Shown here one piece after another: positions 7,546 to 58,980 of a stretch of 64,000 nucleotides of DNA (position 1 is the stretch's first letter; every line of letters begins with the position of its first letter). The translations under genes and the position numbers were made by a program. The stretch is taken from NCBI GenBank assembly GCA_963806985.1, contig CAWDZV010000003.1, forward strand, positions 611,277-675,276, in the 5' to 3' direction. The stretch comes from an uncultured Acidobacteriaceae bacterium (GTDB lineage: Bacteria > Acidobacteriota > Terriglobia > Terriglobales > Acidobacteriaceae). The notes under the pieces were generated by a model. That model worked only from the letters and a program-made list of their open reading frames with translations, searched no databases and had not been told where the DNA came from.

Positions 7546-7771
7546 CCGGCGGCCGCGAGGCCAGATGTGGCGCTGAAAAATTCGGATCGCGTCCGTCAGA
7601 GGTGCGTGATAACCGGGTCGTCCCTCCGGGACTGGATTTGCGAGTGCCTTCCCCAGGGAATTCTCCGCAGTGCTCCGCGCGAGAAAAAATGTCCGCGGCA
7701 CGCTGCACAAGAAAAAGGCCCGAGGCGCGCCGCGGACCTTATCTACTATCATCTGCTATCGGGCTTCTACC

Positions 7772-24844: not shown

Positions 24845-26038
24845 ATGGCCTCTACCTTTTTTCGATCAGTACGATCGCTCGAAGCCGACAACTCGCAGCG
24901 TTCTTATTTGGGTCTCGCTCTGGCTGCCTGCTTGCTGGCGGCGTGGATACTGTGGTTTTTTCTAGCGCGAGTATCGGTTTACGCGGTCACGGACAAGGCC
25001 GATTTGGAAGTGGATCGGGCGGCGCATCCGGTGGAATCGGTGGTCAGCGGCCGAGTCGTGGCGACCGATATGACGCTTGACCAGGAAGTAAAGGCTGGGG
25101 ATGTTCTGGTTGAGCTTGACTCTGGTGCTCAGCAGTTTCAGCTCACTGAAGAGAAGACGCAATTAGCAGGCGCGAATCCACAAATCCGTTCCCGCGAAGA
25201 AGAGATCGTCTCGGAAGGGCAGGCGCTGGAGCAGGATCAGAAATCGGCCAAGGATGCGCTGGAGGAAGCGCGGGCGCACTACCGGGAGGCCGAGGCGGCG
25301 GCGCAATTTGCGCAAGCGGAAGCAGATCGATTGAGCAAGATGTACAACGCCGGGGTAGTGGCGGAACTGGATCTGAACCGGAGCGTCGCCGATGCACAGC
25401 AGCGCCGTGCCGCTGCGGACAGTTTGAAGTATGCGGTGGAGCGACTGGAAGGCGAGCAACGCACGCGTACCAACGAGAGACGTGCACACATCGAACAAAT
25501 GACAAGCGAACTCAACAGGCTGCGCGGCGACCAGGCTACGGCGGGCGTGACTCTGCAGCGCCTGGAAGAAGAAGTAGATCGCCGGTATATACGCGCGCCG
25601 ATTGATGGGAAGTTGGGCGAAGTGGCGCCCTTGAGGGTGGGAGCGGTGGTCCACGAAGGCGATAAACTCGCCGCCGTCATTCCGTCGGGGAAGCTGCGAG
25701 TGGTGGCGAACTTCGATCCACCAGCGGCTTTGGGGCGCATACGGCCGGGGCAGCATGCACGGCTGCGGCTGGAAGGGTTTCCGTGGGCGCAGTATGGAAG
25801 CGTAGGCGCGACCATCACTAGTGTGGCCAGCGAGATTCGCGATGGCAGCATACGAGTGGAGATGGCGATCGATCCGAATTCCTCGTCTCGTATTCCCCTG
25901 CAACACGGGCTGCCTGGGTCGGTGGAAGTTCAGATTGAAACCGTCTCGCCCGCGAATCTCGTGCTGCGTACGGCGGGAAGCTTAGTGGCCAGCCCTAAGA
26001 ACAATTTCACAAATCTCGGCGTGGTGACGGCGCGATGA
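24845..26038 (+). CDS. HlyD-family membrane fusion / secretion protein
   Basis: One N-terminal TM helix, a long coiled-coil (EEARAHYREAEAAAQFAQAEADRL...) and a C-terminal beta-barrel segment. Its stop overlaps the next start as ATGA. Confidence 0.8.
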   Translation: MASTFFRSVRSLEADNSQRSYLGLALAACLLAAWILWFFLARVSVYAVTDKADLEVDRAAHPVESVVSGRVVATDMTLDQEVKAGDVLVELDSGAQQFQLTEEKTQLAGANPQIRSREEEIVSEGQALEQDQKSAKDALEEARAHYREAEAAAQFAQAEADRLSKMYNAGVVAELDLNRSVADAQQRRAAADSLKYAVERLEGEQRTRTNERRAHIEQMTSELNRLRGDQATAGVTLQRLEEEVDRRYIRAPIDGKLGEVAPLRVGAVVHEGDKLAAVIPSGKLRVVANFDPPAALGRIRPGQHARLRLEGFPWAQYGSVGATITSVASEIRDGSIRVEMAIDPNSSSRIPLQHGLPGSVEVQIETVSPANLVLRTAGSLVASPKNNFTNLGVVTAR

Positions 26039-28797
26039 ATCTGGGCCGGCGCCGCATATTTGTTCCGGAGGTGGTGCAGACGTTGGTGATGGATTGCGGA
26101 CCGGCATCGCTGAAGTGTCTGGCGGAGGGATTCGGCATACCTGTCAGCTACGGGCGCTTGCGGGAAGCCTGCCAGACCGATGTCGATGGGACTTCGATCG
26201 ACACGATGGAAGAGGTTGCGAAGCAGTTGGGACTGGAAGCAGAACAGATTATGGCACCAGCGGATTTTGTGCTGCTTCCGGAAGCGAACCTGTTGCCCGC
26301 GATCGCAGTGGTTATTCGCGCCAGCAAGTTAACCCACTTCGTGGTCGCATGGCGGAGCCACGGCGCTCTGCTGCAAGTCATGGATCCCGCGCTAGGCCGC
26401 CAATGGGAGCCGAGGGCGCAATTTGTTTCCAGTCTTTACATCCACACGCTGCCAGTTAGCGCTCAAGGTTGGAGAGAGTGGGCGGAGTCGGAGGAGTTCA
26501 CGCTACCGGTGCGACGGAAGTTGGATGACCTGGGCATTTCGGGGAAGGCTGCGACGGGCTTGATTGAAAACGCGGTCAATGCTCCCGGCTGGCGAGGTCT
26601 GGCTCGACTCGATGCTGGTGCGCGAAGCATGGGCGCAATTGTCAGATCCGGAGGATTGCGGAGAGGAAAGGAAGCGGAGCGGGTGCTGGAACGGCTGCTC
26701 GTTTCGAGCCGGGATGAACGGAGTCAGGGTGAACGGAGTCAGGATGAACAAGCCAGCGGAAGCGCGAAAGAAGAGTACGGCGTAATCCCATCCAATTATT
26801 GGTCAGCATGGTCGGCGCCTCCCGATGAGGAAAACGGAGAGGAGCGCGTTTTCTTTAAGGGCGCGGTGCTGGTGCATGTGAAGGGACGCCGCGCCGAATC
26901 AGCGGCGGTGGAAACTGAGAAGCTTCCGCCGGAGGTGGCTGCCGCACTGCAAGAGAAGTCGAGCGAGCCTGGCCGAGAACTCCTGCGCATGCTAAAGGCG
27001 GACGGGCTCCTTGCGCCTGCGGCGGCGGTGACCGCTCTTTTTCTTGCGACCCTCGGAGTATTGATCGAGGCAGTCTTGTTTCGCAGCTTGCTCGATATGC
27101 CGCGTCAGTTCGGATTGTATGGACAGCGGCTGGGGGTGATGGCAGCCCTATTGATTTTTTTGACCGCCTTGATGCTTCTTGAGTTGCCAATCGCATCGGG
27201 CGTTCTGCGAATTGGCAGGCATCTCGAGGCGCGGCTGCGAACCACGTTTCTCGAAAAAATTCCCAAGCTCGGAGATCGATATTTTCATAGCCGCTTGACC
27301 TCCGATATGGCGGAGCGCAGTCATAGTACGCACCGCATACGGCTGCTGCCGGGATTGGGCGGTCAGGTTCTTCGTTCGACGTTTGAACTCATAGCTACGG
27401 TTGCGGGAATCATCTGGCTGGACGCTCGCCTCGCGGTGCCGGCTCTGATCGCCGCGGCGCTGGCGGTGGGCTTGCCTTTGGCCGTGCAGCCCATGCTCAC
27501 CGAAAGAGACCTCCGAGTGCGCAATCACATGGGAGCGCTGAGCCGTTTCTATCTTGACGCGTTGTTAGGTCTGGTTCCTGTACTCACGCACAGAGCCGAA
27601 CGCGCCTTGCGACGGGAACATGAAAGCTTGTTGGTGGAATGGGCTCATGCATCGTTTGGATTGCAAAGCCTGGCAGTTTGGGTCGAAGCGTTGCAGGGGT
27701 TGACTGGATTTGGCTTGGCTGCCTGGCTGATGCTCGACCACATCAGCCGCGCGGGCGAGGCCGGAGGCGCACTGCTGCTTGTCTACTGGGCGCTCAATCT
27801 GCCGGGGCTGGGTGAGGAGATTGCGCAGGTCGCGCGCCAATATCCTTCCTACCGGAACGTCACGCTTCGACTGCTGGAGCCGATTGGCGCGCTCGAAGAT
27901 GAAGGTGGCGTTGAAAGTAAGGAGAATGCAAACGAATTTGAATCAGCGCCTCGAATTGAGGATTTATCGCTGGAAGGATCCGGCGGCGCATCCATCGAGC
28001 TGACCAAAGTAAACGTGCACGCCGCAGGACACACCATTCTGGAAGAGATCAATTTAAAGATTGATCCGGGCGATCATGTGGCTATTGTTGGCGTCTCGGG
28101 TGCGGGAAAATCGAGCCTGCTGGGCCTGCTTCTGGGTTGGTATCGAGCGGCCGAGGGAAGCGTGCTGGTCGATGGTGCCGCGCTGGAGGGCGTGCATCTG
28201 GACCAGTTGCGTCAGCAGACTGCGTGGATTGATCCGGCAGTGCAGCTGTGGAATCGCTCTCTGTTTTCAAATCTCTGCTACGGCAATCCGGACGCTATGC
28301 CAACCGCAGAGTTGTTGGAACAAATTGAACTGCGCCAGTTGCTCGAAAAATTGCCGGAGGGAATGCAAACGAAACTCGGGGAAAGCGGTGGCCTGATTTC
28401 TGGTGGTGAGGGGCAGCGGGTTCGACTGGGACGCGCTCTGCTAAAACGCGGAGTGCGCCTCGCTCTGCTCGACGAACCCTTTCGGGGACTTGATCGGCAG
28501 GCGCGGCGAGAGTTGCTGGCGCGCGCCCGCCGGCACTGGGCGAGCACGACATTGTTGTGCGTCACCCACGATGTGGGCGAGACACTGACATTTCCTCGCA
28601 CGCTGGTGATTGAGAACGGACGCATTGTCGAGGATGGGAACCCGGCAGAGCTTGCTCGAAGAATGAATTCGCGTTATCGAGCGCTGCTTGAGGCGGAGGA
28701 GAGTGTGCGGGAAAGTTCGTGGTCGGGCGGCGCCTGGCGACACCTCCGGCTGGAAGGTGGCCGCCTGATCGAAGAGTTGCAACGGGCCCGGGCATGA
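26035..28797 (+). CDS. Bacteriocin-type ABC transporter with N-terminal C39 cysteine peptidase domain
   Basis: C39 residues are present (MDCGPASLKCL, HFVVAW, DP). An insert of about 190 aa precedes the TMD. Other motifs are Walker A GVSGAGKSS, signature ISGGEGQRV and Walker B LALLDEP. Confidence 0.8.
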   Translation: MNLGRRRIFVPEVVQTLVMDCGPASLKCLAEGFGIPVSYGRLREACQTDVDGTSIDTMEEVAKQLGLEAEQIMAPADFVLLPEANLLPAIAVVIRASKLTHFVVAWRSHGALLQVMDPALGRQWEPRAQFVSSLYIHTLPVSAQGWREWAESEEFTLPVRRKLDDLGISGKAATGLIENAVNAPGWRGLARLDAGARSMGAIVRSGGLRRGKEAERVLERLLVSSRDERSQGERSQDEQASGSAKEEYGVIPSNYWSAWSAPPDEENGEERVFFKGAVLVHVKGRRAESAAVETEKLPPEVAAALQEKSSEPGRELLRMLKADGLLAPAAAVTALFLATLGVLIEAVLFRSLLDMPRQFGLYGQRLGVMAALLIFLTALMLLELPIASGVLRIGRHLEARLRTTFLEKIPKLGDRYFHSRLTSDMAERSHSTHRIRLLPGLGGQVLRSTFELIATVAGIIWLDARLAVPALIAAALAVGLPLAVQPMLTERDLRVRNHMGALSRFYLDALLGLVPVLTHRAERALRREHESLLVEWAHASFGLQSLAVWVEALQGLTGFGLAAWLMLDHISRAGEAGGALLLVYWALNLPGLGEEIAQVARQYPSYRNVTLRLLEPIGALEDEGGVESKENANEFESAPRIEDLSLEGSGGASIELTKVNVHAAGHTILEEINLKIDPGDHVAIVGVSGAGKSSLLGLLLGWYRAAEGSVLVDGAALEGVHLDQLRQQTAWIDPAVQLWNRSLFSNLCYGNPDAMPTAELLEQIELRQLLEKLPEGMQTKLGESGGLISGGEGQRVRLGRALLKRGVRLALLDEPFRGLDRQARRELLARARRHWASTTLLCVTHDVGETLTFPRTLVIENGRIVEDGNPAELARRMNSRYRALLEAEESVRESSWSGGAWRHLRLEGGRLIEELQRARA

Positions 28798-28843: not shown

Positions 28844-31054
28844 ATGAAAGAAGATTTGCCCTCGCTTTTCTGGTCGTCTTCCGAGCTAGGCTCTGGTCTC
28901 GAAGCTCTGGCACGCAAGAGCGAACTGCGGCCCTCTTCTGTGCAGGTCCCGAACCCTCCAAGCTCGGTTGCTTCGCTGGATAATACGGCCGCGAGCCGTG
29001 ATGCATTGAGCCAATGGATCGAGTCGGCGGCCAGTTGGCTGGGCTTGGAAGCAGAGCCTTCGGCTGTGCCCTACGAGGGGCTGGAGCAAGTTATAGAGAA
29101 TGCCGGATTGGCGGTGCTGCAAGTGCCAGGAGACGGTTCGGCAAAATTCCTCTTTCTTTTCCCACGACCTGTACCCCGAAAAATTTCTGCTCGAAGAAGG
29201 GGACATATATCGGTGCTTGCTCCCGATCTGCGGACGGTCTCACTGCGGCTAGACGCAGTTCGCACACTGCTCTGTAGCGCATTGGAAGAGACGGTCGCGC
29301 CGGAAGTTGACCGCCTGCTCGACGATGCCGGCATTCCCGAGTCGCGACGTGGGGATGCGCGGGCGGCACTCTTGCTCGAACGTCTGAGGGGCAAGGACGT
29401 GGGCGGCTGCTGGCTGCTTCGTCAGTCACCGGGTGCTCCGTTTTGGAGCCAGGCAAATCGAGCCCACTTGCCGAGACGTTTGGGCACGCTACTGGCGGCC
29501 CATGCAGCCGAATATTTTCTGTTGGTTGTTTCCTGGTGGCTTATCGGGCGTGCTGCGCTTTCAGGACATCTGGACCATGGCTGGTTGCTGGCATGGGCGC
29601 TGATTCTGCTAACCCTGGTTCCTTTTCGAGTATTGAGCACGTGGTTGCAGGGCGTGCTGGCGATCAACGGCGGAATTCTCTTCAAACAGCGACTTCTCTT
29701 TGGCGCACTTCGACTGAGACCCGAGGAAATCCGGCACAAGGGTGTAGGGCAGTTTCTGGGCGAGGTCATGGAGTCGGAAGCCGTCGAGTCACTGGCGCTA
29801 AGTGTCGGGTTTCAGGGCTTGACGGGAGCCATCGAATTGATTGCCGCGGAATTCGTTCTCTCGCGAGGCGTGGGGCGCGGGCTGGAGCTGATTTTATTAC
29901 CGGCGTGGTTTGCGCTTACGCTGCTGCTCGGCGTCCGTTATTTTCGGCAACGGCAGCGGTGGACGGAATCGCGGCTCTCGATGACCAACGATCTGACCGA
30001 ACGAATGGTCGGGCATCGCACACGCCTCGCTCAGGAAGCTCGCCAGAACTGGCACGATGGTGAAGATGAGGAACTGGAGCGCTACCTGGAGATGTCGAGA
30101 AAGATGGACGGCGCGGCCGCGCTGCTTATGGCTCTCGCTCCGCGCGGCTGGCTGCTGCTCGGGATGCTTGGTTTGACCGGAGCATTTGCCGCCAGCCAAG
30201 GTCTAAACATTAGACTCGCAATTTCTCTTGGCGGAATCCTGCTGGCGTATCGCGCGCTGAAAAGACTTTCCTTAGGCCTGATTGCTCTCGCCGACGCTAT
30301 TATTTCGTGGCAACAGGTTGCTCCACTGTTTCAGGCAGCGGGCAGAACGCAATTGCAGGGGTCTCCCGCAGTCGCTCTTACGCCTGCCGCTGGCGAGGAT
30401 GACGTCCGAAACGATGCCGTCAGAAATGCTGAGCGCGGAAACCAGGCGGTGATGGAGGCTCACGATCTTGTTTTTCGCTATCAGGAGCGGGGCGAGCCAG
30501 TGTTGAAAGGATGCAGCCTGAGGGTTTGTCCCGGCGACAGGCTTCTGTTGGAGGGGTCGTCGGGCGGAGGTAAATCCACATTGGCGTCGCTGCTTGTCGG
30601 CTTACGAGTGCCGCAATCAGGCCTGCTCTTGCTTCGTGGGCTGGACCGGCAAACGCTTGGTGACGAAGGCTGGCGTCAGCGCGTTGTCTCCGCGCCCCAA
30701 TTCCATGAGAACCATGTGCTCACAGAAACCTTCGCCTTCAACCTTTTAATGGGCCGCCGCTGGCCGCCGCACGAAGAGGATATGCGGGAAGCGTCGGCGA
30801 TTTGCCGCGAACTCGGTCTTGAGCCCCTGCTCAGCAAGATGCCGGCGGGAATGTTGCAAATGGTTGGGGAGACAGGCTGGCAGCTCTCGCACGGGGAACG
30901 CAGCCGGGTTTACATCGCCCGGGCGCTGCTCCAGCGCGCGGAGGTGGTGATTTTCGACGAGAGCTTTGCCGCGCTCGATCCGGAAAATGTTAAGCTGGCA
31001 CTCGGCTGTGTGCTGCGCCGGGCGCGGACTTTGCTCGTGGTGGCACATCCGTGA
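28844..31054 (+). CDS. ABC transporter permease/ATPase without peptidase residues (second subunit of the exporter)
   Basis: Has a 200-aa N-terminal domain of unknown type, then a TMD. Motifs are Walker A GSSGGGKST, signature LSHGERSRV and Walker B VVIFDES. Confidence 0.75.
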   Translation: MKEDLPSLFWSSSELGSGLEALARKSELRPSSVQVPNPPSSVASLDNTAASRDALSQWIESAASWLGLEAEPSAVPYEGLEQVIENAGLAVLQVPGDGSAKFLFLFPRPVPRKISARRRGHISVLAPDLRTVSLRLDAVRTLLCSALEETVAPEVDRLLDDAGIPESRRGDARAALLLERLRGKDVGGCWLLRQSPGAPFWSQANRAHLPRRLGTLLAAHAAEYFLLVVSWWLIGRAALSGHLDHGWLLAWALILLTLVPFRVLSTWLQGVLAINGGILFKQRLLFGALRLRPEEIRHKGVGQFLGEVMESEAVESLALSVGFQGLTGAIELIAAEFVLSRGVGRGLELILLPAWFALTLLLGVRYFRQRQRWTESRLSMTNDLTERMVGHRTRLAQEARQNWHDGEDEELERYLEMSRKMDGAAALLMALAPRGWLLLGMLGLTGAFAASQGLNIRLAISLGGILLAYRALKRLSLGLIALADAIISWQQVAPLFQAAGRTQLQGSPAVALTPAAGEDDVRNDAVRNAERGNQAVMEAHDLVFRYQERGEPVLKGCSLRVCPGDRLLLEGSSGGGKSTLASLLVGLRVPQSGLLLLRGLDRQTLGDEGWRQRVVSAPQFHENHVLTETFAFNLLMGRRWPPHEEDMREASAICRELGLEPLLSKMPAGMLQMVGETGWQLSHGERSRVYIARALLQRAEVVIFDESFAALDPENVKLALGCVLRRARTLLVVAHP

Positions 31055-31144
31055 GAGCTTTCTTCAAAAGTAGATTAGAATTGCAGCCCTCACAGGTTGG
31101 CCGTTAAGAGGCTATCTAAAGACGTTTATCCAAGAGGTTCAAAC

Positions 31145-33721
31145 ATGGTCGGCAAGACACTTCGCTCCTATCGCATTGAGTCGAAACTCGGTGCCGGTGG
31201 AATGGGTGTCGTTTATAAGGCCGTGGACTCGCGCCTCGACCGGATGGCCGCCATCAAGGTGCTGGTCGCCTCCGCAGTCAGCGCCGACCGGGAAAAACGA
31301 TTCACTCAGGAAGCTAAGACTGCATCTTCGCTGAACCACGCGAACATCGTCACCATCTATGACATCGACACACAGGAGATAGATGGCAAGCCGGTTCACT
31401 ACATCGCCATGGAGTACGTGGCCGGCGAAACGCTCGATCATTTGATCGGGCGCAAAGGGCTGCGCGTGCGTACCGCGCTGAAGTATGCGGCGCAGATTGC
31501 CGATGCGCTGGCCGCTGCACACGCCGCAGGCATCGTCCACCGCGATCTGAAGCCCTCGAATGTGATGGTGACGCCGCAAGAGGTGGTGAAGGTTCTTGAT
31601 TTCGGCCTGGCCAAGTTGAACGAAGAGACCGAAGCCGATGCTTTTGCGGAAACGATCCATGGCGATGGCGCTCCTCTTACGGAAGAGGGGACGATTCTTG
31701 GCACGGTCGCCTATATGTCGCCGGAGCAGGCGGAAGGCAAGAAAGTTGATGCCCGTTCGGACATTTTTTCGTTCGGCTCGATGCTTTACGAAATGCTGAC
31801 AGGGCAGCGTGCCTTCACGGGCGGGTCTAAACTGGCGTCTCTTTCGGCAGTCTTGCATCAGGAGCCGCAACCTGCTTCGCAGACGGTTGCAGACCTTCCG
31901 CCGGAATTGGAACGGATCATCGCGCGGTGCATGAAGAAGGACCCAGCGCGCCGATGGCAGAGCATGGCCGACGTGAAGGTCGCTTTGGAGGAGTTGCGGG
32001 AGGAGACGGAATCAAGCAGCGTCGACCAAACGAGACCCAGTTTAGCGACTGGGGGAAAGCGTACGGCGCTCCCGGCCAAACGCTGGCTGGTCCTAGCCGT
32101 TGTGGGTCTGCTTCTGGTGGGACTTGTCGTTGGTGCATACTCGGCGCGAAGGTACTTGCGCGCAGAGCCACTCACGTTCCAACGGGTAACCTTTCGGCGA
32201 GGCGACGTCACGGCAGCGAGGTTTGGTCCGGGCGATGAAATTATTTATAGCGCCAAGTGGGACGGAGGTCCATCGACGCTATTCTCCACCCAGCCGGGAA
32301 ATCGTGAAGCCCGGCCGTTAGGCCTTCCGACGAGTCAGATTTTAGCAATCTCCCACACCGGCGAAATGGCGATTCTGCTGGGCGATGAAGATATAGGGAC
32401 ACTGGCGCGTGTGCCCTTCAGCGGAGGCGCGCCTCGTGAAATGCTGGAGAATGTCAGCGGGGCGGACTGGAGTCCCAGTGGAGACACATTGGCGGTGGTG
32501 CGATCGATCAGGGGAAAAAATCGGCTCGAATATCCCATAGGGACTGTGCTGTATGAAAACGATGCGCGCCCGCCACTTGCGCCACGAGTGTCCGCCGACG
32601 GCAAACTTGTGGCTTTTTTCGACTTCGATGTGGAGGTGGGAGATTACTCGTTATGCGTGGTTGGTTCTAATCGGCCGAAGCAGGTTCTTTCCCGGGGATG
32701 GCGGACGGTGAGTCACTCGCTGAGTTGGTCTCCGAGCGGAGATGAGATCTGGTTTGCCGCCGGCCAGCCGGGCAGCGATCCCGCGCTCTACGCGGTGACT
32801 CTTTCAGGCAAGCAGCGGCTTCTGGCTCAGACTCCTGGCGTGATTGTGATGCAGGATTTGGCCGCCGATGGCCGCGTGCTGCTGAGCACGGTCAACTCTC
32901 GACTTGGCATTCGTTATGTCGACTTCGAACATTCCACCGAGCGCGATCTCGCATGGCTGGACGCTTCCATGCTCTTTGAGATGTCCAATGACGGGAAGAG
33001 CCTGGTGTTTGTGGAGCTCTCTTACGGCGAAGGGCGCAATGCAGCAATCTATTTGCGTAAGACCGATGGGTCCCCCGCGGTAAGACTGGGGTATGGCAAC
33101 CGGCCTTCGCTCTCGCCGGATGGAAAGTGGGTAGTGTGCATCCGTCGCGATGCCGCGCGCGCACGCTTGATGCTGCTGCCGACGGGGCCGGGGGAATCGC
33201 GCTTTCTGAACGTCGAGGGAGTGTACTTCGAGTCGCTCGGGTGGTTCCCGGATAGCAAGCGGGTTGTCTTTACCGGGAATGAGCAGGGACATCCGGTTCG
33301 GACGTGGATCTACGATCTGGACTCCGACAAAGCCACGCCACTTACGACGGAGGGGACGAGAGGCGGCCCAGTTTCTCCGGACGGCCGCTGGTTCGTGATT
33401 GCCGATGTGCATCAGTTATCGCTCGCGCCGGTTACGGGGGGAGCGCCGCGCAAGATAGCCCAGTTGCAGAATGGCGAGGAGGTGGTGAGGTGGAGCGGGG
33501 ATGGACGCTATCTTTTTCTGCGGCAGCCGGAAGAGGATACAGAGAAGATCAGCCGGCTCGAGGTCGCCAATGGGCGCAAAGAACCCTGGCGGACGCTGAA
33601 GGTTCCCGAGCCGGGCGCCGAATTTCTAGGACTCCTCGCACTGTCGGAGGATGGGAAGGAATGCGCTTTCTCCTTTCAGCATGATCTGGCTAACCTCTAT
33701 CTGGTAAAGGGACTGCAGTGA
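31145..33721 (+). CDS. Hanks-type Ser/Thr protein kinase with one TM helix and a periplasmic TolB-like (PD40) beta-propeller
   Basis: Kinase motifs are GAGGMGVVYKA, HRDLKPSN, DFGLA and TVAYMSPEQ. The TM helix is WLVLAVVGLLLVGLVVGAY. Repeated SPDGK/SADGK/SGDGR PD40-like blocks follow. Confidence 0.85.
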   Translation: MVGKTLRSYRIESKLGAGGMGVVYKAVDSRLDRMAAIKVLVASAVSADREKRFTQEAKTASSLNHANIVTIYDIDTQEIDGKPVHYIAMEYVAGETLDHLIGRKGLRVRTALKYAAQIADALAAAHAAGIVHRDLKPSNVMVTPQEVVKVLDFGLAKLNEETEADAFAETIHGDGAPLTEEGTILGTVAYMSPEQAEGKKVDARSDIFSFGSMLYEMLTGQRAFTGGSKLASLSAVLHQEPQPASQTVADLPPELERIIARCMKKDPARRWQSMADVKVALEELREETESSSVDQTRPSLATGGKRTALPAKRWLVLAVVGLLLVGLVVGAYSARRYLRAEPLTFQRVTFRRGDVTAARFGPGDEIIYSAKWDGGPSTLFSTQPGNREARPLGLPTSQILAISHTGEMAILLGDEDIGTLARVPFSGGAPREMLENVSGADWSPSGDTLAVVRSIRGKNRLEYPIGTVLYENDARPPLAPRVSADGKLVAFFDFDVEVGDYSLCVVGSNRPKQVLSRGWRTVSHSLSWSPSGDEIWFAAGQPGSDPALYAVTLSGKQRLLAQTPGVIVMQDLAADGRVLLSTVNSRLGIRYVDFEHSTERDLAWLDASMLFEMSNDGKSLVFVELSYGEGRNAAIYLRKTDGSPAVRLGYGNRPSLSPDGKWVVCIRRDAARARLMLLPTGPGESRFLNVEGVYFESLGWFPDSKRVVFTGNEQGHPVRTWIYDLDSDKATPLTTEGTRGGPVSPDGRWFVIADVHQLSLAPVTGGAPRKIAQLQNGEEVVRWSGDGRYLFLRQPEEDTEKISRLEVANGRKEPWRTLKVPEPGAEFLGLLALSEDGKECAFSFQHDLANLYLVKGLQ

Positions 33722-33817: not shown

Positions 33818-35770
33818 TTATGCGCGACGCTGGCGCTTGGGCGTGAGATTCAGGGTCCGGATCAGACGGAACAGATGGTTGGGATGCACGCCGAGGATGC
33901 CAGCCGCGTCCGTATAGTTGCCATCGGCCTGCTCGATCGCCTGCTCGATGAGTTTCTTCTTGGCCTCGCGGATGCCGTCGTGCAGCGCCGTAATTGGCTC
34001 GCCGGAAGAAGATGCTGTTTCTTCCAGGATCGAATCGGGCAGGTCTTCGGGCAGGATCAATTCCGTCGAACCCAATACCACCGCTCGTTCGATGGCATTT
34101 TCGAGTTCGCGCACGTTGCCCGGCCAAGGATAGCGCAGCAGGCAGGCCCGCGCCTTCGGAGATATGCCGGCGACGCGGCGCTTTACTCTTTCGCTATAGC
34201 GAGCCGTGAAGAAGGCTGCCAGCATCGGGATATCTTCGGTACGTTCCCGCAAGGGAGGAATCTTGATGGAGACCACGTTGAGCCGGTAATAAAGGTCTTG
34301 CCGAAATTTTCCGTTGCGTGACGCTTCGTTGAGGTCCACATTGGTGGCGGTAATCAGCCGGATATCGAGTTTAATTGGGCGCGTGCCGCCTACGCGTTCG
34401 AACTCGCGCTCCTGCAAAACCCGCAATAGCTTGGCTTGCAGGGAATGGGCGAGCTCGCCGATCTCATCGAGAAACACTGTGCCACCCTCGGCGGTTTCCA
34501 GCTTTCCTTTTTTCTGGCCAACGGCGCCGGTGAATGCCCCTTTCTCGTGGCCAAAGAGTTCACTCTCCAGCAGAGTATCGACTATAGCCGCACAATTGAT
34601 GGCCACAAATGGCCGGTCGGCACGGCCGCTGTTGCTATGAATGGCACGGGCAACCAGTTCTTTTCCCGTGCCGCTCTCGCCATGGATGAGGATGGTCGAT
34701 TCGCGCGGCGCCACCCGCGAGACAAACTGATAGACCTCGCGCATGGGCTGGCTTTCGCCAACCATGCTGTGTTGTATGTTAAGTTCCTGCTGCAGGCGGC
34801 GATTCTCATCTCCGAGCCGTTCCAGGTGGCTCGCGTTTTCGATCGCGAGCGCGGCCACGTTTCCGAGCGCGGTCACCAATTGCAACAGAGCCGAATCGAA
34901 AGGAGCGGCGTGCGAAGTGGTATCCAGATAGAGCGCGCCCAGGATTTTGTCCTGCACCTCGAGTGGAACGGCTAGCACGGCATGCACCTGAGGTTCGATC
35001 AGGCTCTCCGCCACACGAAACGCCTCGTCGCCTGGAACATCGTTGCAGAGCACCGCCAGATTCTCTTTGATGACCTGGTTCAGAATTGTTTGGCTGACTT
35101 GAATCGGTTGATTCGGGCCCAGTCGCCGGTCCCAACCGACTACGGAGGTGAATCCTTCAGCTCCCTCTTCGGTCAACAGTATGGCGGCTCGGTCGGCGGA
35201 AGAGATTTCGAGGACCGCTTCCAGGGCTTTCTGCTGAAGCGCAGCTAAGCCACGGACCGAGTTCAGACTGGTGCTGAAGTTGAGAAGAACGTTCAAATCG
35301 CGAACCGTGCGCTCGGTGGCCCCCAGCGTGCGGAGCCGTGCGGGCTGCAGATAAATGGCATCCTGCTTGCGCAATATCACTGTGGCTCCGCCGGGCGTTG
35401 GGGCGGAATTAAACTCCACCGAGGAATTATCGTGAGAATTTTCCAGAGACAAACCCTGGAATACCAAAATTGATTTACCGATCCGTATCTGGTCGCCGTT
35501 CGTCAGCCGTCTCTCTTTGACGGGCACATCGTTCACGAAAGTACTATTTCTGCTGTCCAAATCCTCGAGCAGAAAGCCTTCGCCGTCCCTGCGAATCACG
35601 CAATGCCGCCGCGATGCCAGCGAGTCCAGCAGCGAAATCTGGTTGGAGGGATCACGACCGATCGATAATTCATCGTCGGTGAGGGGAAAAGTTCGGCCAT
35701 GGAGTGGTCCAGCCACTGCTTCGAGCCGGGCAGGGCTCGAGGAAACCCCCTCTGAATCGTGATTTGTCAC
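33818..35770 (-). CDS. Sigma54-dependent enhancer-binding protein with FHA-GAF-AAA+-HTH architecture
   Basis: The FHA block is [23 protein letters not shown]...NSTFVN, followed by a GAF segment. AAA+ motifs are GESGTGKE and the sigma54-contact GAFTGA. A C-terminal Fis-type HTH is present. The start is GTG. Confidence 0.85.
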
Positions 35771-35799
35771 TCGATGAGTATACCAACCGTCGATTTCGT

Positions 35800-35820
35800 G
35801 CGCTTTCTAACATAGATGCG
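35800..35820. promoter_or_regulatory. Candidate upstream activator site, box 1 (GCGCTTTCTAACATAGATGCG)
   Basis: A 21-nt box about 140 bp upstream of sigma54 promoter 1. It matches a box at 36496-36516 about 150 bp upstream of promoter 2 at 18 of 21 positions. Confidence 0.4.
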
Positions 35821-35949
35821 TGATCGCGAAGCGGAAGCGCTAGGTTTTCACGAATAGAGCGGCGCTCACCAAAGAACCGACCATCGTTTTCTCCCGTGGT
35901 TTCAATAAGAAAAACAGACGATGCCAGGAAGGAACTCAGTGGTTACTTT

Positions 35950-35965
35950 TGGCACACAGCTTGCA
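35950..35965 (+). promoter_or_regulatory. Sigma54 (-24/-12) promoter 1
   Basis: The sequence TGGCACacagcTTGCA matches TGGCAC-N5-TTGCW exactly. It is divergent from the EBP gene and lies about 65 nt upstream of micro-ORF 1. Confidence 0.8.
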
Positions 35966-36028
35966 TTACTTAAGTGCGTTACCGCAACTTGAAAGGCCAA
36001 ACAAAGTCCGAAAGAAAGGAGCACTCCG

Positions 36029-36079
36029 ATGAAAGTCAAGACGAACATGAAGGCTGGCAGCGCACTGTGGGGCAGCTAG
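36029..36079 (+). CDS. Micro-ORF 1, 16 aa: MKVKTNMKAGSALWGS
   Basis: AAGGAG lies 7 nt upstream of the ATG and the stop is TAG. It is one of five conserved copies whose differences are mostly synonymous. Confidence 0.65.
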   Translation: MKVKTNMKAGSALWGS

Positions 36080-36148
36080 AAGTCCGAAAAGATCGACCAT
36101 TAAACAAAGGCTTTAGGAAGCGAAAATCTCAGGAAAGGAGCAACCCCT

Positions 36149-36199
36149 ATGAAGGTTAAAACGAATGCAAGAGCGGGCAACGCGTTGTGGGGCGGCTAA
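36149..36199 (+). CDS. Micro-ORF 2, 16 aa: MKVKTNARAGNALWGG
   Basis: AAGGAG SD, ATG start and TAA stop. Against micro-ORF 1 it shows 7 synonymous and 4 conservative replacement differences. Confidence 0.65.
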   Translation: MKVKTNARAGNALWGG

Positions 36200-36267
36200 T
36201 GCTGAAAGTTTTTTTAAACAATCGAAAACTGACAGGCTCATTTAAGAACTCGCTAGCAACAAGAGAA

Positions 36268-36341
36268 GGACGCTCCAAAGGTTGGTGAACACTGGGCTTC
36301 GCAATACCCAGCATCGCCTTTTGGAGTGTCCTCTATTTTTT
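36268..36341 (+). terminator. Probable intrinsic terminator of micro-ORF module 1
   Basis: ggacgctccaaagg pairs with ccttttggagtgtcc and encloses the inner hairpin ctgggc..cccag. The tract tctaTTTTTTg follows. Confidence 0.55.
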
Positions 36342-36495
36342 GCTGCTCTAACGTTCTAACGGGTGCCATTCGAGCGAACTTATCTTCGTGGCCAAAGTCA
36401 CCCATAAGAGATCCCAAGGGTGTCTCGTTCCCCTAGCAGCCCGCCTTTCAGGGTGGTCTGGCTGCGCGCGGCGAGCGCAAGCAACCAGCGGTCTC

Positions 36496-36516
36496 GCGCT
36501 ACCTAACATAAATGCG
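36496..36516. promoter_or_regulatory. Candidate upstream activator site, box 2 (GCGCTACCTAACATAAATGCG)
   Basis: Matches box 1 and occupies a comparable position relative to sigma54 promoter 2. Extra TCTAAC/GTTAGA words occur at about 36345-36362, 36534-36540 and 36634-36640. Confidence 0.4.
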
Positions 36517-36656
36517 AGTTCAGCAAGCCGAATTGTTAGATCGTCTGGCGAGGGGGGACGATGAAGGCCAGAGGCTGAGTAGCCTGACGCTGTGTATCTC
36601 TTTTGTTTTCAATGCGGGAGCAGGTGTCGATATTGTTAGAAACCCGCTGTTACTTT

Positions 36657-36672
36657 TGGCACACCGCATGCA
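36657..36672 (+). promoter_or_regulatory. Sigma54 (-24/-12) promoter 2
   Basis: The sequence is TGGCACaccgcATGCA, with the same GG-to-GC spacing as promoter 1. The flanks are conserved (ttacttt upstream and ttact downstream). Confidence 0.75.
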
Positions 36673-36732
36673 TTACTAAAGTGCATGAAGGCAAGTGGAA
36701 AACAAAAAAATTCAGAAGAAAGGAGCAATCCG

Positions 36733-36783
36733 ATGAAAGTCAAGACGAACATGAAGGCCGGCAGCGCACTGTGGGGCAGCTAA
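36733..36783 (+). CDS. Micro-ORF 3, 16 aa: MKVKTNMKAGSALWGS
   Basis: AAGGAG SD, ATG start and TAA stop. It differs from micro-ORF 1 by one synonymous change (GCT to GCC). Confidence 0.65.
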   Translation: MKVKTNMKAGSALWGS

Positions 36784-36860
36784 TTCAAGGGTTCCCAAAA
36801 ACCGTGAATTGAGTTTAGAAGCAACTGAGCACGGAAAAATCCCACGAAAGGAGCAATCCG

Positions 36861-36911
36861 ATGAAAGTCAAGACGAACATGAAGGCTGGCAGCGCACTGT
36901 GGGGCAGCTAA
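36861..36911 (+). CDS. Micro-ORF 4, 16 aa: MKVKTNMKAGSALWGS
   Basis: AAGGAG SD, ATG start and TAA stop. Its coding sequence is identical to micro-ORF 1. Confidence 0.65.
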   Translation: MKVKTNMKAGSALWGS

Positions 36912-36993
36912 CTTAACAGTTTATAACGAGTTGATAGCTAGAGAAACAGGCAGCGAAGCGATCTAACAAATCCCCGGATAAGGAGCCAGTCCA

Positions 36994-37044
36994 ATGAAAG
37001 TTAAGACGAACACGAAAGCGGGCAACGCATTGTGGGGGAGCTAA
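36994..37044 (+). CDS. Micro-ORF 5, 16 aa: MKVKTNTKAGNALWGS
   Basis: AAGGAG SD, ATG start and TAA stop. Against micro-ORF 1 it shows 5 synonymous and 2 replacement differences. Confidence 0.65.
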   Translation: MKVKTNTKAGNALWGS

Positions 37045-37117
37045 GTTCAACGGCTTACCTGAACCGAACAAAATCAGTATCGCGTATCGAGAAGTTTCAA
37101 GAATTAGAAGCATAAGG

Positions 37118-37180
37118 GTGCTTCAAAGGTTAAAACTGGGCTTCGAACACCCAGCGTCCCCCCTTCGGAGCATCTTTTTG
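37118..37180 (+). terminator. Probable intrinsic terminator of micro-ORF module 2
   Basis: Homologous to 36268-36341, with the inner hairpin ctgggcttcgaacacccag, the outer arm cccttcggagcat, and then cTTTTTg. Confidence 0.5.
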
Positions 37181-37372
37181 CTTGATGGCCGACCCCGTCC
37201 TCACTGAGCATCCCTGTCGCGATGTCCAATTCAGCGCGATTCTGAAAACCACAACTGCCAAGTCCCACGGCGTTCGCCGAATCTCGTTCCTGGCTGCGGC
37301 GGTTTGAGATCCGGAATGGGCGATCTTTGTCCTGATTATCTTCGGCGTGATCCCGTTTAGCATTACAGAGGT

Positions 37373-38170
37373 ATGAATCAGAGAAGAGTGGGACTGGCCC
37401 GAGCGCTTTCGAAAATGGGTTATTGCTCGCGATCTCAGGCGGCTGCTTTGATTCGCGGCGGACGTGTCAGTTTGAATGGGCGCATTGCTCGAGACGTAGA
37501 GAGTCCGGTGCGAATGCCTGGAGATCATATTGGGGTCGACGGTTCGCCGCTCGACAAGGCGCCGCCGCTTTACCTTGTCATGAATAAACCGCGCGGAGTG
37601 GTAACGACCGCATCGGACGAGCAAGGGCGCGAGACGATCTACGATCTGCTGGAGCCATGGTCGTCATGGGTTGGTCCGGTAGGAAGGTTGGATAAGGCGA
37701 GCGAAGGTTTGCTGTTGTTGACCAATGATTCGGAGTGGGCGGCTGCAATCACAGAGCCCTCCAGTCATGTGGACAAGAAATATCACGTGCAAATAGACTG
37801 CGTGGCGGACGGCGATTTGCTGGCGAGAATTGTTCGAAGTACCGCTGAGGGCGGCTTGTTTGCGGATACTTCGATCGCGAAAAAACGAAGGGCGGATGAC
37901 TCGGAACGATGCCTAAGCGCGAAGGTGGCGCGCTTGCTTCGGCATGGAGATAAAAATAGTTGGTTGGAGATTACGTTAGATGAAGGTAAGAATCGGCAAA
38001 TTCGACGATTGCTGGAAGGGTTGAATATTCGAGTTCTGCGACTCGTTCGAGTGTCGATTGGGCCGCTCGAACTGGGCGATCTGAAAAAGGGCTCAACGCG
38101 GCGGTTGACGCCAGCGGAAAAGACTGCGATCGATCGGACGCTAGGAAAGCGATACCCGACTGTGCTGTAG
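37373..38170 (+). CDS. Pseudouridine synthase, RsuA/RluB family, with N-terminal S4 domain
   Basis: The S4-like start is RVGLARALSKMGYCSRSQAAALIRGGRVSLNG. The catalytic motif is GRLDKASEGLLLLTND. Confidence 0.8.
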   Translation: MNQRRVGLARALSKMGYCSRSQAAALIRGGRVSLNGRIARDVESPVRMPGDHIGVDGSPLDKAPPLYLVMNKPRGVVTTASDEQGRETIYDLLEPWSSWVGPVGRLDKASEGLLLLTNDSEWAAAITEPSSHVDKKYHVQIDCVADGDLLARIVRSTAEGGLFADTSIAKKRRADDSERCLSAKVARLLRHGDKNSWLEITLDEGKNRQIRRLLEGLNIRVLRLVRVSIGPLELGDLKKGSTRRLTPAEKTAIDRTLGKRYPTVL

Positions 38171-57280: not shown

Positions 57281-57386
57281 GTCAGGCATCGGTTCCGCGC
57301 GACGTTTTCCCGCCAACCCCGCCAGGTCCGGAAGGAAGCAACGGTAACGGGCTCTTTCGTGTGCAGTGGAGCACCGGTGCCTGGCT
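57281..57386 (+). ncRNA. ffs: Signal recognition particle RNA (small 4.5S type)
   Basis: Contains the universally conserved domain IV core CCAGGTCCGGAAGGAAGCAACGGTAA. The 5' caggcatcggttcc pairs with the 3' ggagcaccggtgcctg. A T-run follows at 57386-57391. Confidence 0.85.
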
Positions 57387-58782: not shown

Positions 58783-58980
58783 GGTCGTCCCTCCGGGACT
58801 TGATTTTTGTTTCGGACGCTTACCCAGCGCCAAGGCGCTGGGCTAAGGTGGGTCGTCCCTTCGGGACTGGAGTTATTGTGCCGTTCTTCCCAGCGCTGAA
58901 GCGCTGGGCTAAGTTCGGCCGTTCTTCCGGGACTGACGTTTTTTAACAAGGGACTGACGTTTTTTAATGCGGGACTGAAG
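58783..58980. repeat. Tandem array of small stem-loop modules (GTCGTCCCTYCGGGACT and CCCAGCGC-N4-GCGCTGGGCTAAG)
   Basis: There are two full units of about 66 nt (58783-58847 and 58850-58913). Degenerate GGGACTGACGTTTTTTAA repeats follow. Confidence 0.7.

Follow-up and report, generated by a model that had tools for sequence, protein, structure and literature searches.

We find that five tandem 16-codon micro-ORFs in the window, by which we mean the whole 64,000-nucleotide stretch of acidobacterial DNA analysed here, are genes whose pattern of variation indicates purifying selection on the encoded peptide. On sequence comparison, their 16-residue products are an unannotated family conserved across soil Acidobacteriota. 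The reading that we favor, with a probability of about 70%, is that the micro-ORFs encode ultra-short precursors that would be cut after a KAG motif and exported as hexapeptides, under the control of a Ser/Thr kinase, an FHA-domain EBP and sigma-54.

Layout and predicted transcription of the micro-ORFs

The micro-ORFs, each 16 codons plus a stop on the forward strand, form two units of two and three genes. The first unit holds micro-ORF 1 (36029..36079, peptide MKVKTNMKAGSALWGS) and micro-ORF 2 (36149..36199, MKVKTNARAGNALWGG), and the second holds micro-ORF 3 (36733..36783, MKVKTNMKAGSALWGS), micro-ORF 4 (36861..36911, MKVKTNMKAGSALWGS) and micro-ORF 5 (36994..37044, MKVKTNTKAGNALWGS); one peptide is encoded three times and the other two once each. 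Every micro-ORF has its own AAGGAG ribosome-binding site 7-8 nt ahead of the ATG. Start-to-start distances within the units are 120, 128 and 133 nt with spacers of 69-82 nt, and the likeness among copies fades some 26 nt ahead of the ORF and some 10 nt past its end. The starts, length, peptides, ribosome-binding sites and spacers given in the original prediction all check out, and a recount reproduced its substitution counts (5 synonymous and 2 replacement differences between ORF1 and ORF5; 7 synonymous and 4 replacement codons between ORF1 and ORF2). Gene calls in the source contigs include none of the 16-codon genes. We rejected two out-of-frame ORFs of 61 and 69 residues (35974-36159 and 36603-36812) as genes because the third codon positions that they would have fall on the best-conserved sites of the 16-codon frame.

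Each unit is preceded by a predicted sigma-54 promoter on the forward strand, with -24 GG and -12 GC elements at the correct spacing. Promoter 1 (35950..35965) matches TGGCAC-N5-TTGCA exactly, and promoter 2 (36657..36672) reads TGGCAC-N5-ATGCA, its -12 element departing from the motif at one base. No other match to TGGCAC-N5-WTGCW occurs on either strand of the 64 kb, in which 0.15 matches would be expected by chance; a sigma-70 promoter scan returned 0 sites. When arrays were scored against TTGGCAC-N5-TTGCAT (GG-N10-GC), 34 of 60 reached the threshold of at least 10 of 13 positions, a score equalled by 2.4% of random windows, and in most of the 34 the element lies 59-83 nt before the first ATG. 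About 10 "operon-type" arrays have no recognisable sigma-54 element. The sigma-54 promoters that had been proposed are thus upheld by the retention of the motif in other arrays and by a conserved, divergent EBP gene.

Further upstream, an alignment of 26 promoter-upstream regions revealed a conserved inverted repeat, CCTAACA-N~27-TGTTAGG, at about 105-155 nt, which is probably bound by the EBP. The window contains a degenerate copy as candidate enhancer (UAS) 1 at 35806..35845, about 105-145 nt upstream of promoter 1, and a CCTAACA ... TGTTAGA inverted repeat as candidate UAS 2 at 36502..36540. One further element is conserved among these regions, a T-rich, TATCTCnTTTnnTnTCAAT-like sequence at 35887..35906, about 45-60 nt upstream of the -24 element and possibly a DNA-bending site; its second copy (TATCTCTTTTGTTTTCAAT) lies at 36595..36613. 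TGTTAGG half-sites also accompany a TGGCAG-N5-TTGCT element at an array of related 18-codon genes (locus L063, see below).

Both units close, as had been predicted, in a hairpin and T-run, which folding recovered on the forward strand at 36264..36342 (terminator 1, a long hairpin followed by UAUUUUUU; -36.6 kcal/mol, z = -5.2) and at 37116..37179 (terminator 2, a long hairpin followed by CUUUUU; -31.3 kcal/mol, z = -4.4). None of 200 shuffled sequences folded as well as either hairpin. A simple terminator scan found neither, because their loops are longer than its criteria allow.

Selection on the encoded peptide

The 16-codon unit recurs in about 150 copies in about 42 acidobacterial MAGs and, in addition, in metagenome contigs, and this recurrence at a conserved length places the micro-ORFs beyond chance. 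Within the set found by pattern search, a length of exactly 16 codons holds in 148 of 149 copies and dN/dS is 0.14. Entropy at codon positions 1, 2 and 3 is 0.43, 0.33 and 1.05 against 1.5-1.9 in the flanks, although this periodicity is inflated because the genome-scan pattern held first and second codon positions fixed. A second set was ascertained by the neighbouring EBP gene and hence without selection on the peptide; it is free of most of the pattern bias, with a search profile built from the pattern-found units. Its strong matches (nhmmer E ≤ 1e-6) number 35, every one of them intact, with a dN/dS of 0.13. Synonymous sites among copies are near saturation, while the Shine-Dalgarno site and the ATG are conserved. 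Further, a search of Rfam 15 over 35700-37300 gave no match at E ≤ 1 or at the gathering threshold. The original prediction had read the repeats as selection on a translated peptide rather than on an RNA repeat, and the fixed length, third-position variation, dN/dS of about 0.13 and empty Rfam search all point the same way. We infer that the micro-ORFs are translated.

The absence of the peptide from described families, which had also been claimed, was borne out. Neither Pfam nor NCBIfam matched a 32-residue extended ORF, a concatenated 48-mer or a 60-residue relative at thresholds of E ≤ 1-10; such searches are weak for a query of 16 residues, but the 60-residue relative was null as well. Our literature search found no description of the family and no paper with the NHNETL or KVKTN motifs.

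An exporter, a kinase and an EBP gene adjoin the micro-ORFs

Five genes precede the micro-ORFs. The first (24845..26038, forward strand) encodes a 397-aa HlyD-type periplasmic adaptor (Pfam HlyD_3) with a single N-terminal TM segment at residues 22-40, and is conserved in orthologous loci; its top NCBIfam matches are EmrA/HlyD adaptors, with NHLM_micro_HlyD scoring well under the cutoff. The second (26035..28797, forward strand) encodes a 920-aa, PCAT-like ABC exporter subunit with a C39 peptidase domain (Pfam Peptidase_C39 at residues 13-132, ABC_membrane, ABC_tran). The C39 domain aligns to those of PCAT1 (4ry2) and ComA and retains Gln15, Cys21, His and Asp, so that by alignment its catalytic residues are intact; PMC6959990 lists C21 and H99 as the catalytic residues. 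Its constant partner is a second ABC exporter subunit of 736 aa without a peptidase domain (28844..31054, forward strand; Pfam ABC_tran), whose TIGR03797-like match falls far under the cutoff.

The fourth gene (31097..33721, forward strand; Pfam Pkinase and PD40) encodes a receptor-type Ser/Thr kinase, with a kinase domain at residues 25-289, one predicted TM segment at 331-349 and a C-terminal PD40/Tricorn-like beta-propeller; its orthologues are annotated Tricorn_N/PD40. The fifth (33818..35770, reverse strand) is divergent from the micro-ORFs and encodes an EBP with FHA (36-98), GAF (177-310), AAA+ sigma-54 interaction (Sigma54_activat, 336-502) and HTH_8 domains. No outer-membrane partner or immunity gene was evident at the module. 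PADLOC returned generic kinase, AAA+ and ABC domain matches only for the module proteins, and we dropped an anti-phage defence system as an explanation on that ground.

Orthologues of the EBP form more than 120 clusters at an identity of at least 82%. Orthologous loci keep the block of adaptor, C39-ABC, second ABC, kinase and EBP genes together with 3-5 micro-ORFs that point away from the EBP gene, and all six full-length EBP orthologues with at least 80% identity and enough upstream DNA carry 3-5 intact copies. Co-occurrence with the EBP, the kinase and the exporter had been suggested as a check on the original prediction; run across orthologous loci, it was positive, and the genomic linkage can be read directly from these contigs.

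The arrangement varies between lineages. In Bryobacteraceae and some others the micro-ORFs stand directly ahead of the HlyD-C39ABC-ABC2 genes. Eight loci (L012, L016, L017, L024, L031, L043, L045 and L056) have them co-directional with and directly upstream of HlyD-C39ABC(-ABC2), and L006 combines this order with a divergent EBP gene. A few copies stand alone in unrelated surroundings (L032, L044, L050 and L052). Full-length FHA-EBP relatives of about 48-60% identity (L066-L072, L075 and L076) had no 16-mer arrays by nhmmer or regex. Metagenome EBP matches L077-L139 mostly cover the generic AAA+ core and none has the micro-ORF unit, for which reason they served as negative controls.

A leader shared among several peptide families

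Residues 1-10 of the 16-mers (MKVKTNxKAG) recur as a leader common to several types of peptide gene, followed in the 16-mers by a six-residue core, S/N-A-L-W-G-S/G. In the same loci, 18-codon genes join the M1-G10 leader to a different tail (MKVKSNLKAG + QSSAAVLD). Using the 60-residue relative from L022 as query, we also retrieved 74 small multi-cassette proteins in which the leader is built into repeated cassettes of KVKTNVKAG, a variable stretch and NHNETLVR. The L022 protein itself contains the six-residue core of the 16-mers, bracketed by both cassette elements. All four multi-cassette loci examined (L022, L057, L058 and L059) have an HlyD-like gene and two large ABC-exporter genes nearby. 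A C39 domain turned up in three of the four, through tblastn in L022 and through Pfam in L057 and L058; the gene in L059 has no domain record. The leader is thus shared, at the level of sequence, across 16-mers, 18-mers and multi-cassette precursors. Given this pattern, we propose a 10 + 6 leader/core architecture with cleavage by the adjacent C39 exporter.

We also considered cleavage at the C-terminal G15-[S/G/A], which would make the 16-mer a "leader-only peptide". This site was set aside because the 18-mers finish with VLD and because no G-[GAS] pair regularly precedes NHNETLV in the multi-cassette relatives; KAG was preferred because it is constant among the relatives.

Comparison with known export and signalling systems

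The closest parallels are the GG-leader/PCAT systems (ComC/ComAB, class II bacteriocins and microcins, CtA/PCAT1), in which small peptides are likewise encoded beside a C39-ABC exporter. The micro-ORFs adjoin an ABC exporter with a C39 domain and intact catalytic residues, as expected of PCAT substrates; an HlyD adaptor is present, as in Gram-negative microcin systems, and the precursors are tandem paralogues with a conserved N-terminal segment that ends in a small-residue pair and precedes a variable C-terminal part. The canonical double-glycine leader, however, is L(-12)xxxE(-8)L(-7)xxxxG(-2)G(-1) and about 15-24 residues long (PMC6959990). Cut after G10, the 16-mers would have a leader of only 10 residues with Ala at -2, Lys at -7, Val at -8 and no position -12; cut after residue 16, at G15-[S/G/A], they would have Gly at -7 and Thr at -12. 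Because of this departure from the consensus, we hypothesize rather than conclude that the C39 domain cleaves at KAG. The leader thus ends in Ala-Gly instead of Gly-Gly/Ala/Ser, has no Leu(-12)/Glu(-8)/Leu(-7) helix and precedes a cargo of 6 residues. The window exporter also differs in being a two-gene ABC pair with one C39 domain and an unassigned insert of 190 residues in the C39 subunit, and its regulators are sigma-54, an FHA-EBP and a Ser/Thr kinase in place of a histidine kinase/response regulator pair or Rgg.

NHLM (NHLP/Nif11) export uses the same three-gene exporter of HlyD adaptor, C39-ABC and peptidase-less ABC, but the window proteins stay far under the family cutoffs, with 39 versus 156 bits (TIGR03794), 156 versus 853 (TIGR03796) and 106 versus 709 (TIGR03797), and the window precursors have no NHLP or Nif11 leader domain.

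In heterocystous cyanobacteria, PatS is encoded by a gene of 13-17 codons, its C-terminal RGSGR penta- to octapeptide being the active diffusible signal, with the PCAT-like HetC as a suggested exporter. Like patS, the window genes are micro-genes of about 16 codons, and the active exported signal would be a short C-terminal part of the product. A link of PatS to PCAT has been proposed, and the patS gene is single-copy and away from hetC (PMC10986499). The window genes, in contrast, are tandem, exporter-linked and predicted to be sigma-54 dependent, and there is no sequence similarity between the peptides.

Cyanobactin PatE is a multi-core cassette precursor. The KVKTNVKAG...NHNETLV family shares with PatE-type precursors the repeated cassettes, the conserved flanking recognition sequences and the short hypervariable cores. 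However, no PatA/PatG-type proteases or heterocyclases occur nearby, where the genes that are conserved encode a PCAT-type exporter and sigma-54 regulators. The window genes are single cassettes and stop at the point at which NHNETLV would follow.

The regulators recall the FHA-domain sigma-54 EBPs of Myxococcus xanthus, reportedly described by Jelsbak, Givskov and Kaiser in 2005 and thought to be under Ser/Thr kinase control. There, as here, an EBP with an N-terminal FHA domain is encoded beside a eukaryote-like Ser/Thr kinase, an arrangement that implies phosphothreonine-dependent control of the sigma-54 promoter. The window EBP differs in belonging to another phylum, in its extra GAF domain and in its apparent targets, which are micro-peptide arrays and not developmental genes.

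Proposed mechanism and alternatives

Taken from the sequence data, the micro-ORFs most likely encode secreted hexapeptides, which are possibly cell-to-cell signals. Sigma-54 RNA polymerase would bind the -24/-12 elements at 35950 and 36657, and the divergently encoded FHA-GAF-AAA+ EBP would open both promoters, probably via the CCTAACA...TGTTAGG repeat upstream. Two short polycistronic mRNAs of 2 and 3 cistrons, each cistron with its own Shine-Dalgarno site, would end at the hairpin/U-runs. The leader would then be recognised by the adjacent exporter of C39-peptidase ABC subunit, second ABC subunit and HlyD adaptor; the C39 domain would cut behind the near-invariant Ala9-Gly10, and the released hexapeptide would be exported. 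The receptor kinase, with its cytoplasmic kinase domain, single TM segment and presumably extracytoplasmic beta-propeller, may feed back on the EBP through the phosphothreonine-binding FHA domain. This feedback is suggested by gene neighbourhood; if the kinase sensed the exported peptide, the result would be an autoinducing, quorum-sensing-like loop.

A different use of the same export route would be to release an antimicrobial or some other bioactive peptide resembling a microcin or RiPP. Such a product might carry a modification on Trp14 or at another position, made by an enzyme whose gene lies elsewhere, and the kinase and EBP would then answer competition or stress cues and not the peptide. 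Bacteriocins and microcins are the classic cargo of PCAT and HlyD systems (PMC12219008), arrays of bacteriocin and RiPP precursors typically consist of tandem copies that diverge a little, the multi-cassette relatives look like multi-core RiPP precursors, and the distant copy at L052 adjoins a B12-binding radical SAM gene. We nevertheless consider an antimicrobial product rather unlikely, since no tailoring enzyme or immunity gene is conserved and the genes outside the HlyD...EBP block vary between orthologous loci. Moreover, an unmodified core of 5-6 residues would be far shorter than any class II microcin, and the core is strongly conserved, with W14 and G15 invariant, and not diversifying.

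The 16-mers could instead be regulatory micropeptides that work within the cell. The Ser/Thr kinase might, for example, take them as substrates or be modulated by them, or the EBP's FHA domain might bind them as phospho-Thr5 ligands; the exporter would then serve another substrate or mere removal. Thr/Ser at position 5 is nearly invariant among the 16-mer copies, and in Terriglobales the kinase and FHA-EBP are the tightest conserved neighbours of the micro-ORFs. Yet in loci of the Bryobacteraceae type the micro-ORFs stand first in the HlyD-C39ABC-ABC2 operon, with neither EBP nor kinase seen in the DNA examined around them, the leader is also found at L058, whose EBP has no FHA domain, and a conserved leader with variable tails is more in keeping with an export signal than with a kinase substrate. 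On this evidence we regard an intracellular role as very improbable.

That the repeat works as RNA alone (an sRNA or cis-regulatory repeat with an incidental ORF) might be suggested by units that are short, tandem and unannotated and by predicted small transcripts with strong terminators at their ends, but it is already disfavoured and scarcely credible given the three-base periodicity in the ORF frame, the fixed length beside variable spacers, the conserved start signals, the low dN/dS with near-saturated synonymous sites, 5' UTRs that fold no better than shuffled sequence and the Rfam result.

Returning to exported hexapeptides, a bolder extension is that the locus forms a self-contained peptide quorum-sensing circuit, in which a Trp hexapeptide cut by the PCAT would be exported and sensed outside the cell by the propeller-kinase, and the signal relayed by the phosphothreonine-reading FHA-GAF EBP to sigma-54 promoters that drive more peptide, and that KVKTNVKAG defines a new, widespread PCAT leader class spanning the 18-mers, the multi-cassette NHNETLV proteins and several phyla. 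We offer this tentatively, as a speculative possibility.

Implications for Acidobacteriota

Few soil bacteria are as abundant as the Acidobacteriota, yet their communication and competition are almost unexplored. The 16-codon genes escape standard gene callers, yet they are kept in dozens of species and are accompanied by a dedicated set of five genes for export and regulation. If the speculative quorum-sensing circuit exists, a precursor of 16 residues would be among the shortest known and would belong to a new circuit design in diderm soil Acidobacteriota. The KVKTNVKAG leader may provide a search handle for hidden exported micro-peptides and multi-core precursors, and is a compact candidate secretion tag. 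If the peptides are signals, a Gram-negative phylum would have linear-peptide signalling that runs through a eukaryote-like kinase, FHA and sigma-54 and not through a two-component system.

Tandem micro-ORFs in two duplicated units

Five ATG-initiated micro-ORFs of 16 codons each lie on the forward strand of the window (starts at 36029, 36149, 36733, 36861 and 36994), as sequence reading of 35800-37400 bore out, and each is preceded by a Shine-Dalgarno sequence, AAGGAG, 7-8 nt 5' of the ATG. They encode MKVKTNMKAGSALWGS (three copies), MKVKTNARAGNALWGG and MKVKTNTKAGNALWGS, and the source contigs have zero genes called within this interval. A repeat finder placed all five in one family whose similarity spans the Shine-Dalgarno sequence and ORF and fades in the 69-82-nt spacers. 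Our recount agrees with the original prediction in finding 5 synonymous and 2 replacement differences between micro-ORFs 1 and 5, and 7 synonymous and 4 replacement codons between micro-ORFs 1 and 2.

The sigma-54 motifs proposed ahead of both clusters are present as TGGCAC-N5-TTGCA at 35950 and as an ATGCA variant at 36657, and TGGCAC-N5-WTGCW matches nowhere else in the window (0.15 matches expected by chance). Folding likewise recovered the hairpin and U-run said to end each cluster (-36.6 kcal/mol with z = -5.2 for the first, -31.3 kcal/mol with z = -4.4 for the second). Since the two units are alike and the promoter region is itself present twice (35942-35994 and 36649-36701, 83% identity), the locus is a tandem duplication of a promoter, micro-ORF and terminator unit.

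Selection acts on the encoded peptide

Orthologues of the neighbouring FHA-GAF-sigma54 enhancer-binding protein (EBP) form more than 120 clusters at at least 82% identity. Two loci fetched via the EBP protein (L003 and L004) keep the five-gene block and carry 3-4 exactly-16-codon ORFs in the same place, encoding for example MKIKTNTKAGSAMWGS and MKVKTSAKAGNVLWGS. When 185,579 species genomes were scanned with a degenerate DNA pattern, 51 stretches were found in about 42 MAGs that bear the labels Acidobacteriaceae, Terriglobales, Bryobacteraceae, Ca. Sulfotelmatobacter or plain Acidobacteriota and, in one case, Chloroflexota. In this pattern-found set the 16-codon length is kept in 148 of 149 copies, M1, G10, W14 and G15 are invariant, and 130 distinct nucleotide sequences yield just 55 peptides. 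Entropy per site is 0.43, 0.33 and 1.05 at codon positions 1, 2 and 3 and 1.5-1.9 in the flanks, and pooled Nei-Gojobori estimates give pS = 0.60 and dN/dS = 0.14.

Because the scan pattern held many first and second codon positions fixed, we gathered a further sample via the neighbouring EBP gene in a metagenome scan. All six full-length EBP orthologues with at least 80% identity and enough upstream DNA (L060, L062-L065 and L074) have 3-5 copies. When these were combined with the window, L003 and L004, 35 of 35 strong matches (nhmmer E <= 1e-6) were intact 16-codon ORFs. The EBP-found sample, which is not fully independent in that its copies were located by a profile from the pattern-found units, gave a dN/dS of 0.13 and a third-position entropy of 0.64 versus 0.28 and 0.19 at the other positions. 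A weak nhmmer match at L063 3528-3584 is a degenerate copy that lacks an ATG and has two inserted codons, and one array copy at L055 ~4790 is damaged by TGG to AGG (W14R); no other degenerate copy was noticed in about 180 units.

Rfam has no match at the micro-ORF locus, and the 5' UTRs fold no better than shuffled sequence. Taken with the constant length, the third-position variation and the two dN/dS values, this upholds the earlier view that selection acts on a peptide and not on an RNA repeat, and a function of the RNA only, to which we assign almost no weight, is effectively excluded by the coding signals, the empty Rfam search and the unremarkable folds.

Linkage to an exporter and a regulator

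Upstream of the micro-ORFs, the forward strand of the window encodes an HlyD-type adaptor (24845-26038), an ABC exporter of 920 residues whose N-terminal part is a C39 peptidase domain (C39ABC, 26035-28797), a second ABC subunit without peptidase (ABC2, 28844-31054) and a Ser/Thr kinase of 874 residues (STK, 31097-33721) that has a single transmembrane segment (331-349) and, C-terminally, a PD40/Tricorn-like beta-propeller. The EBP gene (FHA-GAF-sigma54-interaction-HTH) is on the minus strand at 33818-35770, divergent from the micro-ORFs, and its close relatives (87-88% identity) carry the NCBI label Terriglobales; the window has matches among metagenome contigs. The pseudouridine synthase gene that lies downstream is not conserved as a neighbour.

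A tblastn search of the five window proteins against all loci found the anticipated co-occurrence with EBP, kinase and exporter, in two gene orders. Terriglobales-type loci have the array divergent from EBP-STK-ABC2-C39ABC-HlyD, and eight tiles (L012, L016, L017, L024, L031, L043, L045 and L056) have 1-2 micro-ORFs directly upstream of and co-directional with HlyD-C39ABC(-ABC2). Both orders meet in L006, where the EBP gene is divergent from micro-ORFs-HlyD-C39ABC. As two independent arrangements join the same peptides to the same exporter, there is strong evidence, at the level of gene order, that the two are functionally linked. Where no partner is visible, the array mostly lies at the edge of its 8-kb tile, and orphan single copies occur in L032, L044, L050 and L052. 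In L036 an IS91-family transposase gene (6432-7616, minus strand) occupies the expected EBP place beside a three-copy array with a perfect sigma-54 promoter. The single 16-codon ORF of L052, a locus from the MAG labelled Chloroflexota, encodes MKVKTNLKAGPGFWGG (4085-4135, plus strand) and is convergent with a B12-binding radical SAM gene (4203-5783, minus strand); horizontal transfer, a binning error or a variant that is modified could each explain it.

Several other features of the window were recorded. A ~190-residue segment of C39ABC between peptidase and membrane domain (residues ~133-320) has no Pfam match and the N-terminal ~210 residues of ABC2 (~1-210) have no domain assignment; these extra segments could be regulatory or substrate-docking domains. 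The GTG start of the EBP gene is preceded on its own strand, at a distance of only ~8 nt, by a conserved GGCGGTTGG-TATACTC (window ~35771-35800). A -10-like TATACT so near the GTG suggests that the EBP mRNA has no leader or a very short one, or that the start codon is mis-set. Elsewhere, the Acido-Lenti-1 sRNA (RF01687) has two matches in tandem (58823-58868 with 46.5 bits and 58889-58934 with 50.1 bits, plus strand), and a small SRP RNA of the bacterial type lies at 57286-57383 on the plus strand; these RNAs fit an acidobacterial origin and have no relation to the micro-ORF locus.

A common leader on different tails

One pattern match (L022, 2667-2849) encodes a 60-residue peptide which, used as a query, retrieved 74 unannotated small proteins of 41-104 residues (P0121-P0194), each with 2-3 cassettes of KVKTNVKAG, 2-14 variable residues, NHNETLVR and a linker. 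These multi-cassette precursors occur in Acidobacteriota and Ca. Eisenbacteria and have no Pfam, NCBIfam or literature match. In L057, L058 (Ca. Eisenbacteria) and L059, tandem precursor genes lie beside an HlyD-like gene and two large ABC-exporter genes, often with a sigma-54 EBP and kinase too, and these three loci have no common tailoring enzyme. L057 and L058 have a recorded C39 domain, the L059 counterpart gene has no domain record, and HlyD and C39-ABC were detected by tblastn in L022.

A second array lies downstream of the EBP gene in four loci (L060 3266-3567, L062 5149-5320, L063 6388-6920 and L065 6125-6870) and consists of 2-5 genes of 18 codons, MKVKSNLKAG-QSSAAVLD (MKVKSNLKAGQSSAAVLD and variants), with the 10-residue leader of the 16-mers and a different core. 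In L063 this array is accompanied by a sigma-54-like element of its own, TGGCAG-N5-TTGCT, and by TGTTAGG half-sites. The window lacks an 18-mer array, and its EBP-kinase gap is only 97 nt. Because the same leader heads the 16-mers, the 18-mers and the cassette precursors, residues 1-10 form a common module on different tails. The L022 peptide carries the six-residue tail of the 16-mers between both cassette elements, and the 16-mer stop codon falls at the exact point where the NHNETLV follower would begin. On comparison of these sequences, the shared residues 1-10 and the bracketed tail are the signature of a leader (or recognition sequence) plus core.

Regulation

Of 60 arrays, 34 are preceded by a -24/-12 element that agrees with TTGGCAC-N5-TTGCAT at 10 or more of its 13 positions, in most cases 59-83 nt from the first ATG; among random windows taken from these loci, only 2.4% reach that score. 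Several Bryobacteraceae arrays have weaker variants at the identical position, such as TGGTAA-N5-TTGCC. Alignment of 26 upstream regions revealed two conserved features: an inverted repeat, CCTAACATAAATG...TTGTTAGGT, that lies about 105-155 nt 5' of the -24 (window copies at 35806-35845 and 36502-36540), and, closer to the promoter, a TATCTCnTTTnnTnTCAAT element. The repeat is placed as expected of an enhancer for the adjacent EBP, which we infer would bind it. Separately, a 14-nt inverted repeat (GAATTGTTAGATCG / CGATCTAACAAATC) pairs the right half of the second candidate enhancer (36530-36543) with the spacer ahead of micro-ORF 5 (36959-36972), the latter arm including a half-site-like TCTAACA.

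As the kinase is receptor-type and the EBP begins with an FHA domain, the natural reading is a relay that would run from kinase through phosphothreonine and FHA-EBP to sigma-54. The FHA-EBPs of Myxococcus parallel this regulator. In operon-type arrays, where the micro-ORFs stand directly 5' of HlyD, the sigma-54 motif is missing and the Shine-Dalgarno sequence has a conserved hairpin, GAGTTCTCGCCTGCCAGCGAGAACTC, just ahead of it (L017 ~5300-5361, L024 ~3250-3309, also L035, L045 and L056). The hairpin may be a different regulatory device; regulation thus differs between lineages.

Processing and possible roles

We favor, with a probability of roughly 0.7, a reading in which the micro-ORFs would be translated as ultra-short precursors under sigma-54/EBP control and the adjacent system, of the C39-peptidase-containing ABC transporter (PCAT) type, would process and export them. 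The C39 domain aligns with PCAT1, in which C21 and H99 are named catalytic (PMC6959990), and with ComA, and it keeps the oxyanion Gln, Cys21, His and Asp, so cleavage of the 16-mers by this domain is plausible. Of all positions, Ala9-Gly10 alone is constant in the three peptide types, which makes a cut after KAG the most economical hypothesis. The leader fits neither the canonical GG-leader consensus, L(-12)xxxE(-8)L(-7)xxxxG(-2)G(-1) (PMC6959990), nor microcin signal sequences of 15-18 residues (PMC12219008). For this reason we do not file the 16-mers as canonical GG-leader peptides, although their mode of action is most likely similar.

If the peptides are exported, they might tentatively be autoinducers, sensed by the kinase propeller in a positive feedback. 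An antimicrobial or modified-RiPP product seems unlikely, as the loci share no conserved tailoring or immunity gene and the core shows conservation instead of diversification, and an intracellular regulatory role of the 16-mers is more improbable still.

The nearest known systems to such exported precursors are GG-leader peptides with PCATs (ComC/ComAB, microcins) and NHLM exporters. The exporter trio in the window resembles the NHLP/Nif11 (NHLM) systems in architecture, yet falls far below the family cutoffs. PatS offers a conceptual parallel as a micro-gene with an active C-terminal oligopeptide, and cyanobactin-like multi-core precursors parallel the wider cassette family. That the peptide lies outside described families was corroborated, for it and its cassette relatives, in Pfam, NCBIfam, Rfam, PADLOC and the literature searched. 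The 16-mers would thus be PCAT-exported leader peptides whose leader, of 10 residues, is non-canonical, whose core has 6 residues and whose regulatory wiring is unusual, and the micro-ORF family, overlooked by annotation and directly testable, is widespread in an abundant, poorly understood phylum.
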